Made by a program: the position numbers and the translations under genes
Notes under the pieces: model-generated
The model's database searches: none
The model's input: the letters and a program-made list of their open reading frames with translations, nothing else
What the model was told of the DNA's origin: nothing
Shown: one piece after another, positions 3,504 to 11,380 of the stretch
Layout of the letters: each line of letters starts with the position of its first letter
Numbering within the stretch: the first letter of the stretch is position 1
Source: a virus
DNA length: 64,000 bases
Virus record (IMG/VR): IMGVR_UViG_3300032092_000004
Span: 1 to 64,000 of that record
Reading direction: 5' to 3' (one strand)

Positions 3504-6500
3504 ATGTCTTCAGTTTATTGCTCAACATGTAACGGTACCCAAGAAAGCTGGGTTAATATCGGTGATTTACCATTTAATTATCCTAGTCTAACACCAAATG
3601 ATTCATTCATCGTAGGTGATGGGTTTGATGATATTATTCTATCAACAGTAATTCAATCAGACGGAAAGATATTAGTTGGTGGTGGTTTTACATCATATAG
3701 TGGGGTATCTAAAAATAGAATTATTAAATTAAACTCTGATGGATCAATAGATTCTAGTTTTGTAACTGGCTTAGGGTTTGACGGTAGTGTTAGGGATATT
3801 GAAGTTCAGTCGGATGGAAAAATACTAGTTGTTGGGGGGTTTACAGAATATAGCGGAGTTTCTTATGGTGGAATTATTAGGTTAAATACTGATGGTTCTA
3901 TTGACAATAGTTTTGTTATTGGAACTGGATTTAATGGTGATGTTTATACAATTGAATTACAATCGGATGGAAAAATATTAGTTGGTGGTGAATATAATGA
4001 ATATAGTGGAGTTTCTTCTAATTATATAATTAGATTAAACTCTGATGGATCAATAGATTCTAGTTTTGTTATTGGTACCGGATTTAATCAGGTTGTTCTT
4101 ACAATTGAATTACAATCGGATGGAAAAATATTAGTTGGTGGTAATTTTACATTATACAGTGGAATATCTAATAATTACATTGTTAGATTAAATACCGATG
4201 GATCTGTTGATAATAGTTTTGTTATTGGTAGTGGATTTAATAACATTGTTTATTCAATACAAATACAATCAGATGGTAAAATAGTGGTTGGTGGTGATTT
4301 TGGTGAGTATAGTGGTTTAACTTATGATAAAATTATAAGATTAAACTCTAATGGAACAATAGATTCTAGTTTTGTTATTGGTAGTGGATTTAATCGTAGC
4401 GTAAATTCATTAAAAATATTATCAGATGGAAAAATAGCTGTCGGAGGATATTTTGGAGAATATGATGGTACGACAAGTCCGGGAATTGTTTTATTAAATA
4501 ACGACGGGTCTTTATTTAATCTATATGTTGGGACTGGTTTTAATAATTCACCTTATAGTATATCCGAAACAAATAATGGTAATATTTTAGTTGGCGGTGA
4601 ATTTAATCAGTTTAACGTAACTAACTCAAATTACATAATAATGTTAGACATTAATTTAAGTTTATCGTCTTATAGAACCACAAATCAACTTTGTGTTTAT
4701 CCGATAAGTGGATTTACGTACAATGGAAATTTGGTTTTTGATGCTTTTAATAATCAAATATTAAATAGTTATGTAAACACAATACAAATACAACCAGATG
4801 GTAAAGCACTTGTTGGTGGAGCTTTTACAAATTACATTATTAGATTATTTCCGGATGGATCCATTGACCCAACATTTAATGTTGGTTCAGGTTTTAACGG
4901 TATAGTATATAAAATAAAAATACTTGATAATGGAAAAATACTAGTTGGTGGTGAATTTACTTCTTATAATGGATATTCGTCAAACTATATTGCAAGATTA
5001 AATTCAGATGGTTCATTTGATGAAACTTTTGGTATTGGAACTGGTTTTAATAATATATTAAGAGATATTGAGGTATTACCTGACGGTAGAATATTATGCG
5101 GAGGTGACTTTACCACATTTGATGTACTTTTTAGTATTGGTAATGGATTTAATAATAGTGTTATTACAATACAAATACAACCGGACGGAAAGATATTAGT
5201 TGGAGGTAACTTTACAACTTATAGTGGTGTATCTATAAATAATATTATAAGATTAAACACTGATGGATCAATAGATAATAGTTTTGTTATTGGTACTGGA
5301 TTTAATAGTACTGTTTTGTCAATTGAATTACAATCAGACGGAAAGATATTAGTTGGTGGTATATTTACATCATATAGTGGTGTATCTAGAAATAGAATTA
5401 TTAGATTAAATACTGATGGATCTGTTGATACTAGTTTTGTTATTGGAACCGGATTTGATAATTTTATTTTTTCAATTGAATTACAATCAGACGGAAAGAT
5501 ATTAGTTGGTGGTTTCTTCACATCTTATAGTGGTGTATCTAGAAATAGAATTATTAGATTAAACACTGATGGATCAATAGATAATAGTTTTGTTATTGGT
5601 ACTGGATTTAATAGTACTGTATTTGACATTGAACTACAATCAGACGGGAAGATATTAGCGGGTGGAGCATTTACATCTTATAGTGGTGTATCTAGAAATT
5701 TTATTATTAGATTAAATACTGACGGATCTATTGACACTAGTTTTGTTATTGGTGCGGGGTTTAATAATGTTGTTTACTCAATCGCAACCCAATCAGATGG
5801 GAAGATATTAGCGGGTGGCGACTTTACATCATATAGTGGAGTATCTAGTAATAGAATTATTAGATTAAACACAGACGGGTCTATTGACACTAGTTTTGTT
5901 ATTGGTACTGGATTTAATAGTATTGTCACATCAATCGCATTACAATCAGACGGAAAGATATTAGTTGTTGGATGGTTTTCATCATATAGTGGTGTATCTA
6001 GAAATAGTATTATTAGATTAAATAGCGATGGATCAATAGATGTTAGTTTTGTTATTGGCACTGGATTTAATGGTCAGGTAAGTATAATTACATTACAACC
6101 TGACGGAAAAATGTTAGTTGGTGGTGCATTCAGTTCTTATAGTGGATATTATTCACCCCGTTTAATAAGATTAAGAACAAACGGATCAATAGATGCCGAT
6201 CAATGTAATAAAATATCGTTACTAACTGAAAATGGTAATTTTGATAATAGTTTTGTTATTGGAACTGGATTTAATAGTCGGGTAAATACCATAACATTAC
6301 AATCAGACGGAAAGATATTAGTTGGTGGCGACTTTACATCATATAGTGGAGTATCTAGTAATAGAATTATTAGATTAAACACAGACGGGTCTATTGACAA
6401 CAGTTTTAGTATTGGGTTAGGATTCGATTCCCAACCTCTTGATCTTGTGTTACAAGCGGACGGAAAGATACTAGTTGGTGGTATATTTACATCATATAGT

Positions 6501-7070
6501 GGTGTATCTAGAAATTATATAATTAGATTAAATACCGATGGTTCTGTTGACACTAGTTTTGTTATTGGTACTGGATTTGATAATTTTGTCTCTGTAATGG
6601 ATTTACAATCAGACGGAAAGATATTAGTTGTTGGTGGTTTTACATCGTATAGTGGGGTATCTAGTAATAGGATAATTAGGTTAAACACAGATGCGTCTGT
6701 TGATGATAGTTTTGTTATTGGTAGTGGATTTAACGATACTGTTCAGGATATTTCGGTACAACCGGACGGAAAGATATTAGTTGGTGGTTACTTTACCACA
6801 TTTGACTTTATCTCCAGATATTATATTGCGGAACTTTATACGGAAGGAACAACCCCAATTGAATTATCTAGTTTTCTTGAATTCTCTTCTTGTACGGAAT
6901 GTTTTAACTTCACAATTAACTCTGGAGACGAATACTTGATGTGTGAAGTTTGTAATGGTGATACCTTCACTGTAAACCCACCTCACCCGGTATGGACAAA
7001 CAATTATGGAACCGCAGTTACAATATTAGATGCTATCGTTTTAGGTGGCCCGAATGGATTAAATAATTAA
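3504..7070 (+). CDS. Delta-60-type repeat beta-propeller protein (21 repeats of ~51 aa) in a Cys-rich scaffold; probably virion-associated
   Basis: Repeat unit FVIGTGFNxxVxxIxLQSDGKILVGGxFTSYSGVSRNRIIRLNTDGSIDxS; CxxC motifs at both ends; TATTTAT upstream; next to the sheath gene. Confidence 0.85.
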   Translation: MSSVYCSTCNGTQESWVNIGDLPFNYPSLTPNDSFIVGDGFDDIILSTVIQSDGKILVGGGFTSYSGVSKNRIIKLNSDGSIDSSFVTGLGFDGSVRDIEVQSDGKILVVGGFTEYSGVSYGGIIRLNTDGSIDNSFVIGTGFNGDVYTIELQSDGKILVGGEYNEYSGVSSNYIIRLNSDGSIDSSFVIGTGFNQVVLTIELQSDGKILVGGNFTLYSGISNNYIVRLNTDGSVDNSFVIGSGFNNIVYSIQIQSDGKIVVGGDFGEYSGLTYDKIIRLNSNGTIDSSFVIGSGFNRSVNSLKILSDGKIAVGGYFGEYDGTTSPGIVLLNNDGSLFNLYVGTGFNNSPYSISETNNGNILVGGEFNQFNVTNSNYIIMLDINLSLSSYRTTNQLCVYPISGFTYNGNLVFDAFNNQILNSYVNTIQIQPDGKALVGGAFTNYIIRLFPDGSIDPTFNVGSGFNGIVYKIKILDNGKILVGGEFTSYNGYSSNYIARLNSDGSFDETFGIGTGFNNILRDIEVLPDGRILCGGDFTTFDVLFSIGNGFNNSVITIQIQPDGKILVGGNFTTYSGVSINNIIRLNTDGSIDNSFVIGTGFNSTVLSIELQSDGKILVGGIFTSYSGVSRNRIIRLNTDGSVDTSFVIGTGFDNFIFSIELQSDGKILVGGFFTSYSGVSRNRIIRLNTDGSIDNSFVIGTGFNSTVFDIELQSDGKILAGGAFTSYSGVSRNFIIRLNTDGSIDTSFVIGAGFNNVVYSIATQSDGKILAGGDFTSYSGVSSNRIIRLNTDGSIDTSFVIGTGFNSIVTSIALQSDGKILVVGWFSSYSGVSRNSIIRLNSDGSIDVSFVIGTGFNGQVSIITLQPDGKMLVGGAFSSYSGYYSPRLIRLRTNGSIDADQCNKISLLTENGNFDNSFVIGTGFNSRVNTITLQSDGKILVGGDFTSYSGVSSNRIIRLNTDGSIDNSFSIGLGFDSQPLDLVLQADGKILVGGIFTSYSGVSRNYIIRLNTDGSVDTSFVIGTGFDNFVSVMDLQSDGKILVVGGFTSYSGVSSNRIIRLNTDASVDDSFVIGSGFNDTVQDISVQPDGKILVGGYFTTFDFISRYYIAELYTEGTTPIELSSFLEFSSCTECFNFTINSGDEYLMCEVCNGDTFTVNPPHPVWTNNYGTAVTILDAIVLGGPNGLNN

Positions 7071-8034: not shown

Positions 8035-8523
8035 ATGGCTGATTTATTAATGAAAATGCCGATCCCTTACGAACCGAAAAGGGAGAACCGATGGATTTTG
8101 AGATTTCCATCATCACTTGGTATTAACGAGTGGTATGTAGAAAGTACATCAAGACCAAAACTTACTATTGGATCTAAAGAGATCGAATTTTTAAATACTT
8201 CAACGTTTGTTGCAGGTAGATTTAAATGGGAAGCAATTTCAGTTAAGTTCCGTGACCCTATCGGACCTTCAGCTTCACAAGCTATTATGGAATGGATTCG
8301 TTTATGTGCTGAGTCGGTAACAGGACGTATGGGTTACGCTGCGGGGTACAAAAAGAATGTCGACCTTGAGATGTTGGATCCAACAGGGGTAGTTGTTGAA
8401 AAATGGATATTAGAAGGAGCATTTCTTTTAGGATATGATGGAGGTTCTTTAGCTTACAACTCTGATAATATCGCAGGTATCACATGTCAAATGCAAATGG
8501 ATAGATGTATCTTAGTATACTAA
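8035..8523 (+). CDS. Tail tube protein (T4 gp19-like)
   Basis: YEPKRENRWIL...SRPK...AGRFKWEAISVKFRDPIGP...GYKKNVDLEMLDPTGVVVEKWILEGAF; size and position fit. Confidence 0.92.
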   Translation: MADLLMKMPIPYEPKRENRWILRFPSSLGINEWYVESTSRPKLTIGSKEIEFLNTSTFVAGRFKWEAISVKFRDPIGPSASQAIMEWIRLCAESVTGRMGYAAGYKKNVDLEMLDPTGVVVEKWILEGAFLLGYDGGSLAYNSDNIAGITCQMQMDRCILVY

Positions 8524-8545: not shown

Positions 8546-8578
8546 AACCGTAGACTTTACAGTTTACGGTTTTTTTTT
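8546..8578 (+). terminator. Intrinsic terminator after the tube gene
   Basis: AACCGTAGAC-tttaca-GTTTACGGTT hairpin followed by a T run. Confidence 0.8.
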
Positions 8579-8605
8579 ATTATTTAAGTTGAAATTATAT
8601 ATAAT

Positions 8606-9376
8606 ATGGAACAAAATGAATATACAGTAGGTCACGGTAATTTAAATTTACCTCATGACGTTATAACTCTACCAACACAGGGTATTTTTTACAGATCAAA
8701 AAAGAAAACAGTTAAAGTGGGTTATTTGACTGCGGTTGATGAAAACATACTTTCAGATTACGACGGTACAAGAAATGTTACTGAGTCAATTATTCTACCA
8801 TTGTTAAGAAACAAAGTATATGAAAGAGAAATTAGACCTGAAGAACTCTTAGATGGAGATGTAGAGGCAATTTTATTATTTTTAAGAAACACGGCTTTTG
8901 GACCTGAATACAAATTAACAGTTACAGATCCCTCAACAGATCAAAAGTTTACGGCAACAATCCAATTAGATGAACTTAATTTCAAAAAAACAGAAGTACA
9001 ACCTGATGAAAACGGACTTTTCAATGTGACATTACCTGTATCTAAAAGAAAAGTATCTTTAAAACTATTGTCTTTAACGGATACATTAGAGATCGATAGA
9101 ATCATTAAAAGCTATCCTTCCGATAGAACAGCACCTTCAATTACCACTAAATTAAACAAACACATTGTTACTTTAGATGGGGATGGAGACAGAATTAAAA
9201 TTTCAACATTTGTTGAAACTATGCCTATCGGAGATTCTAAATATATTAGAAGATTCCTTGTTGATAACGAACCAAGATTAGATTTAAGAAAAGAAGTAAT
9301 AGCCCCGTCAGGAGAAAAAGTAATGGTTAACATTGCTTTTGGGGTGGAATTTTTTCGGCCTTTCTTCGCAGTATAA
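8606..9376 (+). CDS. Baseplate hub / tail assembly chaperone (T4 gp26-like)
   Basis: ITLPTQGIFY...YLTAVDENIL...LLDGDVEAILLFLRNTAFG, an internal pseudo-duplication (VTLPVSKRKV), and a C-terminal EFFRP; lies between tube and tape measure. Confidence 0.75.
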   Translation: MEQNEYTVGHGNLNLPHDVITLPTQGIFYRSKKKTVKVGYLTAVDENILSDYDGTRNVTESIILPLLRNKVYEREIRPEELLDGDVEAILLFLRNTAFGPEYKLTVTDPSTDQKFTATIQLDELNFKKTEVQPDENGLFNVTLPVSKRKVSLKLLSLTDTLEIDRIIKSYPSDRTAPSITTKLNKHIVTLDGDGDRIKISTFVETMPIGDSKYIRRFLVDNEPRLDLRKEVIAPSGEKVMVNIAFGVEFFRPFFAV

Positions 9377-9509
9377 GATAACCATATTAGATGAGTTTTA
9401 TTATTTCTCAAAAATTTTCAGAACACAGTACTCTGAGTTCATGTCTTTGCCCACGTATGTAAGAAAATACTTAATTAACAAATATGTTGAAGAAATTGAA
9501 AATAAATAA
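9354..9509 (+). CDS. Unannotated +1-frame extension of the chaperone gene (probable programmed frameshift product; G/GT-like)
   Basis: Open +1 frame FGLSSQYKITILDEFYYFSKIFRTQYSEFMSLPTYVRKYLINKYVEEIENK* with no early ATG; it begins at TTT TTT CGG. Confidence 0.7.
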   Translation, partial: FGLSSQYKITILDEFYYFSKIFRTQYSEFMSLPTYVRKYLINKYVEEIENK

Positions 9510-9541: not shown

Positions 9542-11380
9542 ATGACTGAAGAAGAAAAAAAAGAAGTCCAAAAACAAATTCAAGAAGCGGTTGCTGCCGA
9601 AAGAAAGAAAATTGCTCAAGGAGTTTCTGGTGAAGAAACAAAAATTCCTTTACTTGATTTTAAGGAAGACTACGTAAAAGATTGGACTGTTGGTCTTGGT
9701 ACTATTAAAACAGAAGTTGGAAAAACTATGGAAGAAGTTGCCGCTTCTTTTACCGATAAAAGTTTGGGTGAAAATACTTTCATTAAGTTATTAGATGAAC
9801 AAGCTACGGAACTTTCGTCACAATTTGGTGTTGGAAAAGGTAGGATGGAGGAATTTCGTCAATCTATTGCCGATGTATCACCAGCACTTATTAGAATGGG
9901 AGTGGACCAAGCCGATGCAATCAAGAACATTGGTAAAATGGGAGAAGCTTTAGGTTCCGCGGCAAGTTTAGGAAGTGAGGCAATAATTGAACTATCCGCC
10001 GCTTCTAAAGCTACAGGACAAGATGTTGGTCTTTTAACTGAAAAATTTAGAGAAGTTGGTGTTTCAGTTTATGATGTTGGTGATGCAATGTTAGATGTTG
10101 CAAATTCAGCAAGAGCTGCCGGTGTTTCAGTTGGTGCGGTATCTTCCGCTGTTGCTCAAAACATAGGAAAACTAAACTTATATAATTTTGAAGGTGGTAT
10201 TAACGGACTAACAAAAATGTCGATACAGGCATCAAGACTTGGTGTTGATATGGGTAAAGTATTTAAAATTGCCGATGATTTATTCTCACCTGAAAAGGCA
10301 ATTGAAATGTCAGCATCATTACAAAGATTAGGTGTGACAAGTAGTGGATTGTTAGATCCATTAAGGGCGATGGACATGGCACAAAATGATCCTGAAGCAT
10401 TACAAAACGAGATCCTTAACATTTCTAAAGAATTTACCAAGTTTAATGAACAAACAGGTAAGTTTGAAATTATGCCAGGTTCAAAACGAAGATTAAGAGA
10501 AGTTGCAGAGGCGATGGGTATGACCGCAGAAGAATTGGCAGGTATGTCAATTAAAGCTTCGGAGTTTGACAAAAAAATGTCACAAATCAAATTACCTAGT
10601 TTTGCTGAAGGTAATGAAGAAACTAAGGAACTCATTGCTAGTATGGCACAAATGAAAGATGGTGTTGCCACAGTAAACGTTAAGGATGAAAAAACAGGTG
10701 AGGTAATATTAAAACAAGTTGATCAATTAACACCTGAAGATATTGAAAAATTAAAAGAGTCTCAAACAACTCAAGCGCAAACGGTTGAACAGTTAGCTTA
10801 CGACCAATTAACAGAGTTACAACAAATTAATAGTAGTATATCAGGGACAAAAGCCGCTGTTGGGTTTGGAAAGGCAACTTCAGAACCAATTGAAAAACTT
10901 TTCACGACTATGATGGGTATTAATAAAGATGTTGCTGTGGGTCTGAATAGAGGAGTTACAACAAAATCTGTAAGAGAACCATTAACAGACTTAACTCAAC
11001 CAATTGAAGATGCGATAACGGCATTGTTAAAGGAAGACGCTAAAGGGGCCTCAGATGCGTTTAACCAATTTGTTGCGAACGCAGCAAAAATAGAGGAAGA
11101 ATCAAAAGCTAAAATTCAAACATCATTTGATAATACATTAAAAAGTATTCAGGAAACATTTAATAAGGCTTATAACCCACAAACCCCTTCTCAACCACAA
11201 ACAGTAAATGTTAATTGGACTATTTCTGGTGATCCTAACATAACTGGTAAAATTAATCAAGATCAATTTGATAGAATGTTAAATACGTCCACATCTAATC
11301 CTGATACTAGAATTAACGTAACTAATAATTTAGTTGACAAAAACGCACCATCAGCAACAACAGGAGGTAAAAATCAATAA
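9542..11380 (+). CDS. Tape measure protein
   Basis: Ala/Gly/Leu-rich helical protein (LTKMSIQASRLGVDMGKV, RRLREVAEAMGMTAEELA) directly after tube and chaperone. Confidence 0.8.
   Translation: MTEEEKKEVQKQIQEAVAAERKKIAQGVSGEETKIPLLDFKEDYVKDWTVGLGTIKTEVGKTMEEVAASFTDKSLGENTFIKLLDEQATELSSQFGVGKGRMEEFRQSIADVSPALIRMGVDQADAIKNIGKMGEALGSAASLGSEAIIELSAASKATGQDVGLLTEKFREVGVSVYDVGDAMLDVANSARAAGVSVGAVSSAVAQNIGKLNLYNFEGGINGLTKMSIQASRLGVDMGKVFKIADDLFSPEKAIEMSASLQRLGVTSSGLLDPLRAMDMAQNDPEALQNEILNISKEFTKFNEQTGKFEIMPGSKRRLREVAEAMGMTAEELAGMSIKASEFDKKMSQIKLPSFAEGNEETKELIASMAQMKDGVATVNVKDEKTGEVILKQVDQLTPEDIEKLKESQTTQAQTVEQLAYDQLTELQQINSSISGTKAAVGFGKATSEPIEKLFTTMMGINKDVAVGLNRGVTTKSVREPLTDLTQPIEDAITALLKEDAKGASDAFNQFVANAAKIEEESKAKIQTSFDNTLKSIQETFNKAYNPQTPSQPQTVNVNWTISGDPNITGKINQDQFDRMLNTSTSNPDTRINVTNNLVDKNAPSATTGGKNQ

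Follow-up and report, generated by a model that had tools for sequence, protein, structure and literature searches.

A probable +1 ribosomal frameshift at a conserved UUU_Y site in the gp26-like tail genes of a large group of phages

Gene layout and reading frames at the locus

The analyzed stretch, called here the window, comprises 64,000 nucleotides (positions 1 to 64,000 of the IMG/VR record IMGVR_UViG_3300032092_000004) of a viral contig of 153 kb with 32% G+C, whose completeness is estimated at about half. Zero matches to the region were obtained by blastn against 50,697 phage records. A 1188-aa protein composed of 19 DUF5122 beta-propeller repeats (E 1e-279) immediately precedes the tail genes, at 3504-7070. 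The features described below are all on the plus strand. The tail tube gene (gp19-like, 162 aa) is located at 8035-8523 and was recognized by phrog_4542 (E 4e-19) and PF06841 (E 4.4e-5). It is followed, in the intergenic region, by a terminator-like hairpin (8546-8581) with an 11-pair stem and then a T run, TTTTTTTATT; a terminator is annotated at the matching position in the record of Bacillus phage SP-15. This hairpin may lower the dose of the chaperone relative to that of the tube protein. The next gene, at 8606-9376, is gp26-like and has a frame-0 product of 256 aa (P0001); it adjoins the tube gene in 83 distinct relatives as well. At 9542-11380 lies a probable tape measure protein of 612 aa. 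No match was found for it in family or profile searches, and its pairwise similarity with the tape measure protein of Flavobacterium phage immuto is weak (E 0.002), the assignment being based on position, which is the same as that of the annotated tape measure proteins of immuto and of Bacillus phage HSE3.

The gp26-like gene ends with GAA (9347) TTT TTT CGG (9356-9358) CCT TTC TTC GCA GTA TAA (9374-9376). The +1 frame is free of stops from 9324 to a TAA at 9507-9509 and encodes GLSSQYKITILDEFYYFSKIFRTQYSEFMSLPTYVRKYLINKYVEEIENK. We propose TTT TTT CGG (9350-9358) as a +1 shift site, containing a conserved TTTTTTC, a TTT_Y at the invariant Phe249, and the rare codon CGG. When the frames are joined after the second TTT, the fusion has 300 aa (P0002), and its C-terminal domain would be the +1-frame extension of 50 codons plus TAA (9357-9509). 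In the overlap zone (9359-9376), frame 0 reads PFFAV-stop and the +1 frame reads part of GLSSQYK. The earliest ATG of the +1 ORF is found 28 codons beyond the site, and two TTG codons (9333, 9339) precede the site, at distances of 6 and 8 codons. A stop closes the -1 frame one codon beyond the frame-0 stop. Since the in-frame run is phased TTT_TTT_C and the -1 frame is closed, a shift at this point would have to be +1. Re-reading of the letters agrees with the original prediction regarding the gene end with its TAA at 9376, the +1 frame open to the TAA at 9509, the product lengths of 256 and 300 aa, and the absence of an early ATG in the +1 frame.

Judging from profile matches, the ORF at 8606-9376 is a member of the T4 gp26/gp51 family (PF12322; phrog_150). 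The window protein matches PF12322 (T4_baseplate) over residues 31-235 with 28.2 bits (E 1.8e-6), the curated cut-off being 24.5 bits, and phrog_150 (baseplate hub) with an E-value of 1.7e-10. The fusion aligns with the phrog_150 profile, which has 282 positions, up to position 237 only, so the extension falls outside that profile. An AlphaFold model of the 256-aa domain (pLDDT 86.5) is similar to the models that BFVD has for SP-15's baseplate hub (TM 0.79/0.82, E 4e-17) and for Gp26 from Aeromonas phage 25 (E 1.3e-5). At the C-terminus there is an (E/N/S)-F-F motif whose F249 is invariant in the family alignments, one of which includes T4 gp26. Both Cys pairs (CPxCG ... CxxCG), which are kept by T4 gp26 and most relatives, are lost in the window protein, with DPSTDQ and APSGEK found instead. 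These pairs are typical of the gp26 family and probably not essential, and the putative zinc ribbon would therefore be dispensable in the window's clade.

There was no strong match for the 256-aa model among PDB structures. Over model residues 135-224, the best ones were 2ob9, a tail assembly chaperone from HK97 (Z 5.2, rmsd 3.1 over 75 residues), and 3klu, YqbN (Z 5.3, rmsd 3.5 over 82 residues). Foldseek assigned to this chaperone-fold match a probability of 0.91 and an E-value of 0.13, and the match is a middling one (Z around 5), with unrelated rows at Z around 2. YqbN is the paralogue of XkdN. The latter has been named as the tail assembly chaperone of PBSX (PMC9406221). A profile search of PDB sequences revealed nothing meaningful. 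The single-sequence AlphaFold prediction of the 300-aa fusion is unusable (pLDDT 32.6), and the predicted complex of the tube protein with the extension scored 0.00, a value that carries no weight on binding either way.

Conservation of the site and of the +1 frame

The two elements of the original prediction, TTT TTT CGN and the +1 ORF, are kept in 38/38 IMG/VR relatives of the window's clade (56-95% protein identity), the last codon of the string being CGG, CGC or CGT and the ORF extending 44-48 codons beyond the frame-0 stop. The same 38 relatives keep the frame-0 end RPFF(xx)-stop. Considering all 39 loci of the clade, 22 of them distinct, TTTTTTC is invariant. The variable sites in the overlap zone number 1, 1 and 5 at the first, second and third frame-0 codon positions, so that RPFF is kept while the +1 reading varies among GLSS, ALSS and VRSS. 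Beyond the overlap, synonymous codon differences among the 22 distinct sequences amount to 38% in the +1 frame versus 4% and 7% in the other frames. The third-position changes of frame 0 in the overlap, together with the synonymous changes in +1 beyond it, indicate that both frames are under protein-level selection. As far as these alignments go, the conservation of the site and of the +1 ORF is far beyond chance. A G-rich tract (GGGGTGG, 9341-9347), located 2 nt before the T run, is also conserved within the clade, with GGGGT invariant although GGG makes up 10% of Gly codons; its conservation stops at the window's clade. In a search of 5.8 billion proteins, 3182 homologues were found, and the best 120 are nearly all of exactly 256 aa, which indicates that the frame break recurs in independent assemblies. 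These best 120 cover only the first 83% of the fusion.

The family survey included 146 loci, from deposited phage genomes and about 100 more distant IMG/VR loci, with a threshold of at least 40 codons for the +1 ORF. A +1 ORF and, at the invariant Phe, an in-frame TTT followed by C or T were present in 141 of them. From the other five, three are cut by contig ends and two are exceptions (L139 and L145). The codon after TTT is TGG in 58 loci, CTT in 35, CGG in 31, CGT in 8, CTA in 5, CGC in 2, and CAC in 2. The residue after Phe is variable (R, W, L, H), and the first base of its codon is always C or T. On this comparative evidence, the element conserved family-wide is UUU_Y and not UUU_CGN; as the next codon differs among clades, the rare Arg codon is the version of the window's clade only. 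The original prediction regarded a +1 shift in a gp26-like chaperone as unusual, but for a large group of gp26-like genes the +1 arrangement seems to be the norm.

This arrangement is present in six named isolates, namely Microcystis phage Mel-JY01, Flavobacterium phage immuto, Bacillus phages SP-15 and HSE3, Rhodothermus phage RM378 and Streptococcus phage GXN1, as well as in the record of the 484-kb metagenomic phage LR756508. The +1 ORF extends 64-89 codons beyond the frame-0 stop in all 7 deposited phage records. We take the hosts of the 6 named isolates to represent four bacterial phyla. Where the flanks are annotated, sheath and tube come first, followed by the gp26-like gene, the small ORF and the tape measure; RM378 differs in having its tube and sheath genes on the opposite side of the gp26-like gene.

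The extensions share the core GL(S/T)xxY(K/R)..L..E......Y....(M/L)P.(Y/W).R.(Y/F)..K. With the extension profile, 1271 representative proteins were retrieved, the best 150 being in every case short ORFs called separately, whose starts fall at different points in the domain. Neither the best 120 gp26-like homologues nor the best 150 extension matches included an in-frame gp26 fusion, and the single longer protein retrieved with the extension as query is not such a fusion either. In a 144-aa protein (P0122) encoded in a contig of GCA_031546345 (L042:3001-3435), the extension domain, 85% identical over 39 residues, is fused in frame to an unrelated 105-aa N-terminus. This could be an assembly chimera, or it may be a new arrangement. 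A match of the extension with PF20442 (BrxL_N) fell below the cut-off (E 0.008) and was dismissed as chance.

Competing readings and the proposed mechanism

The downstream ORF could be a separate small gene initiated at TTG 9333 or 9339 (58 or 56 aa), with no fusion being produced. Gene callers and GenBank annotators do call small ORFs separately, and TTG codons are found in the +1 frame of every member of the window's clade. However, these TTGs arise as a consequence of the frame-0 codons ATT-GCN and TTT-GGG, and no TTG occupies a position conserved across clades. Moreover, 29 of the 104 distinct +1 ORFs contain no ATG, GTG or TTG in the interval from the preceding +1 stop to where the conserved part of the extension begins, and in such start-less ORFs the +1 frame is often open for only 2-9 codons upstream of the site. 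The two exceptions of the survey (L139:2232-2549 and L145:2223-2511) show that the extension domain can be a free protein with its own ATG. In both of them, this ATG is located 2-5 nt after the gp26-like stop, in the -1 frame, the protein is longer by about 22 residues at its N-terminus, and the invariant Phe is encoded by TTC instead of TTT. By their sequences, they act as a natural control against separate initiation elsewhere. A separate gene would also leave unexplained the presence of an invariant TTT_Y beside a variable next amino acid. From these comparisons, separate initiation of the extension is unlikely, and we attribute a small probability to an unfused gene in the window.

The fusion would also be encoded in one frame if the RNA polymerase slipped on the T6 and dropped one U in some transcripts; the window has this T6 and several clades have T7. 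Transcriptional slippage usually needs runs of about 8 or more, and a T3 is not expected to slip. Many relatives have T3 only (AGC TTT CTT, TTC TTT CGT, TTC TTT TGG, AAC TTT CTA), the common feature of all clades being the in-frame UUU_Y. Although slippage of this kind is used by other length-ruler systems (PMC5009743), we consider it very improbable here. The probability is slightly lower still for a -2 ribosomal shift on the T run, which would reach the same frame with one extra Phe. Shifts of -2 have been described in phage tail chaperone genes, and tRNA-Phe can re-pair two bases back in T6 or T7, but this re-pairing is impossible with AGC TTT C or TTC TTT Y, where the arrangement is nevertheless kept. 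Finally, a homopolymer sequencing error or a pseudogene hiding one real 300-aa ORF, as could be suspected because the deletion of one T would join the frames and the contig comes from a metagenome assembly, has a negligible probability, an assembly error being refuted for practical purposes by the T6 identical across 39 independent contigs, the recurrence of the 256-aa call in well over 100 protein clusters, the lack of in-frame fusions among the best matches mentioned above, the same break in finished genomes of cultured phages, and the purifying selection on the frame-0 tail RPFF.

We consider it highly probable that a +1 ribosomal frameshift yields here a pair of chaperones similar to lambda G/GT. 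The +1 reading of the original prediction gains comparative support from the site, the +1 ORF, the missing starts, the +1 coding signature, and the rare CGG. The rarity of this codon, first estimated by eye together with the predominance of AGA, was confirmed by counting: in 105 long ORFs of the 153-kb contig, CGG accounts for 8 of 41,850 codons (0.19 per 1000), being the second-rarest sense codon, and AGA for 77% of the Arg codons. CGC occurs 7 times in the same ORFs. Such rarity fits a slow A site. The +1 slip of tRNA-Phe from UUU to UUC or UUU is supported by the sequence comparison, while UUU_CGN does not hold as the general motif and has to be replaced by UUU_Y. TTT_Y is missing where no shift would be needed, since T4 has TTT_G and both L139 and L145 have TTC. 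We did not find a predicted downstream RNA structure (z +0.59) or a stimulator common to all clades, and in some clades (TGG, CTT) the A-site codon would not count as rare by its identity.

According to the proposed mechanism, most ribosomes would read frame 0 to the TAA at 9376 and release the 256-aa protein ending in ...GVEFFRPFFAV. In a fraction of them, a pause would occur while UUU (9350-9355) is occupied by peptidyl-tRNA-Phe and the A site, with the very rare CGG, is still empty. The tRNA-Phe would then re-pair one base downstream, from UUU to UUU or UUC, and translation would resume in the +1 frame from GGC 9357 to TAA 9509. The long product of 300 aa (...GVEFF-GLSSQYK...EIENK) would share the first 250 residues with the short one and carry a 50-aa helical tail, and the expected junction peptide of the trans-frame protein is VMVNIAFGVEFFGLSSQYK. 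The domain common to both products would hold the tape measure or the hub, and another tail component would be brought in by the tail. We infer the shift, its efficiency and these binding partners from the sequences.

Relation to known tail chaperones and recoding sites

The tail assembly chaperone frameshift that produces gpG and gpGT in lambda is conserved (Levin 1993; Xu, Hendrix and Duda 2004; reviewed in PMC5009743), the G-T frameshift being described as conserved in long-tailed phages "except T4" (PMC5009743). As in lambda, the gene of the window has the tube (major tail) gene on one side and the probable tape measure gene on the other, and would have a short and a C-terminally extended product encoded in overlapping frames, with no reliable start in the downstream one; the arrangement is likewise kept while the sequences diverge. 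In addition, part of the window-protein model bears a middling resemblance to the fold of the HK97 chaperone (Z 5.2). On the other hand, the shift proposed here is +1 on UUU_Y and that of lambda is -1 on an X_XXY_YYZ heptamer, and no in-phase heptamer of this type is present at the window site. The PF12322 domain of 250 aa, carrying two Cys pairs in most relatives, also differs from the gpG-like protein of about 140 aa. The position, the two-product logic and the weak fold link point, by analogy, to a lambda G/GT-like role with the putative partners named above.

Regarding the site, UUU_Ynn is particularly liable to +1 shifting in bacteria, and the +1 site of influenza is UCC_UUU_CGU (PMC5009743). 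The bacterial sites, including YopN-TyeA, and influenza PA-X have a P-site UUU followed by a pyrimidine (PMC5009743), as found here, so that tRNA-Phe would re-pair in +1, and in the window's clade the A-site codon is a rare CGN as in PA-X. The differences are that we are dealing with a phage structural-assembly gene, that the E-site codon is UUU or GAR and not UCC, and that the A-site codon varies across the gp26-like clades. Another known case is prfB (RF2), with a +1 frameshift at CUU_UGA and an upstream Shine-Dalgarno element. Both prfB and the gp26-like site would involve a single-tRNA +1 slip onto UUU, some gp26-like relatives have CUU_UGG, and the spacing of GGGGTGG before the T run recalls the prfB stimulator. 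However, the A site of the gp26-like genes contains no stop codon, and the G-rich tract is not conserved outside the window's clade. The host is likely of the Bacteroidota type, in which little use is made of Shine-Dalgarno pairing.

In T4, gp26 (208 aa) consists of the PF12322 domain alone, and gp51 (249 aa) has this domain over residues 1-201 and a 48-aa tail. Both have been called hub assembly chaperones (PMC3004832). They mirror the pair of 256 and 300 aa proposed here, and the E-F-F motif with its invariant Phe is shared. In contrast, T4 has two separate genes with no recoding, which are not adjacent to the tube gene, and its gp26 gene has TTC TTT GAG, lacks the extension, and runs directly into gene 25. 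The extension and the gp51 tail show no significant homology (hhalign E 0.45, on gp51 221-244), and gp51 was not retrieved by the extension profile.

A different situation was found in the Synechococcus phage S-PM2 (150495-151363 of its record), where the gp26-like gene ends with TCT TTT TTC GCA TAA. There is a U_UUU_UUC heptamer and an extension of 58 codons in the -1 frame, which is recognized by the extension profile (E 0.005). The family, the motif (SFF), the string TTTTTTC, and the homologous extension are common to S-PM2 and the window, whereas the phase is T_TTT_TTC with a -1 extension in the former and TTT_TTT_C with a +1 extension in the latter. Judging from S-PM2, the phage checked, T4-like cyanophages would use -1 where the large gp26-like group would use +1.

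In the literature, we found no report of a frameshift, +1 or -1, in gp26- or gp51-type genes. Among the 7 GenBank records, the gene appears as "baseplate hub subunit", "baseplate protein" or hypothetical, together with a small hypothetical ORF, and one record is unannotated; in the GXN1 record the small ORF was not called. None of the 7 has a frameshift annotation. Since they annotate a short gene and a small ORF, or nothing, the long form would be missing from the records. What appears to be new here, from the sequences, is the +1 form at UUU_Y, spread over phages of Bacteroidota, Bacillota, Cyanobacteria, and Rhodothermus.

There are, in our estimate, even chances that the PF12322 family supplies T4-related and many giant myoviruses with their tail assembly chaperone, its short and long forms being made by four interchangeable routes. 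With the same even chances, these routes would be a bare UUU_Y read with a +1 shift (the window and phages of four bacterial phyla), a U_UUU_UUC read with a -1 shift (cyanophages), a free extension gene (L139, L145), and a duplication, as in T4 26/51. If this is true, T4 would no longer be an exception to the G/GT rule, and UUU_Y with no shared stimulator would be among the most widespread natural bacterial +1 signals after prfB. A frameshift in gp26-like genes suggests a reason why reviews list T4 as the exception, and would link the poorly understood gp26 and gp51 of T4 to the well-studied G/GT chaperones of tail length. About 140 natural +1 sites that share only UUU_Y, from hosts of several phyla, and with a sister clade using -1 at the same motif, would form a rare comparative set for +1 programming. 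As there are cultured relatives, namely Flavobacterium phage vB_FspM_immuto, Bacillus phages SP-15 and HSE3, and Rhodothermus phage RM378, the claim is directly testable.
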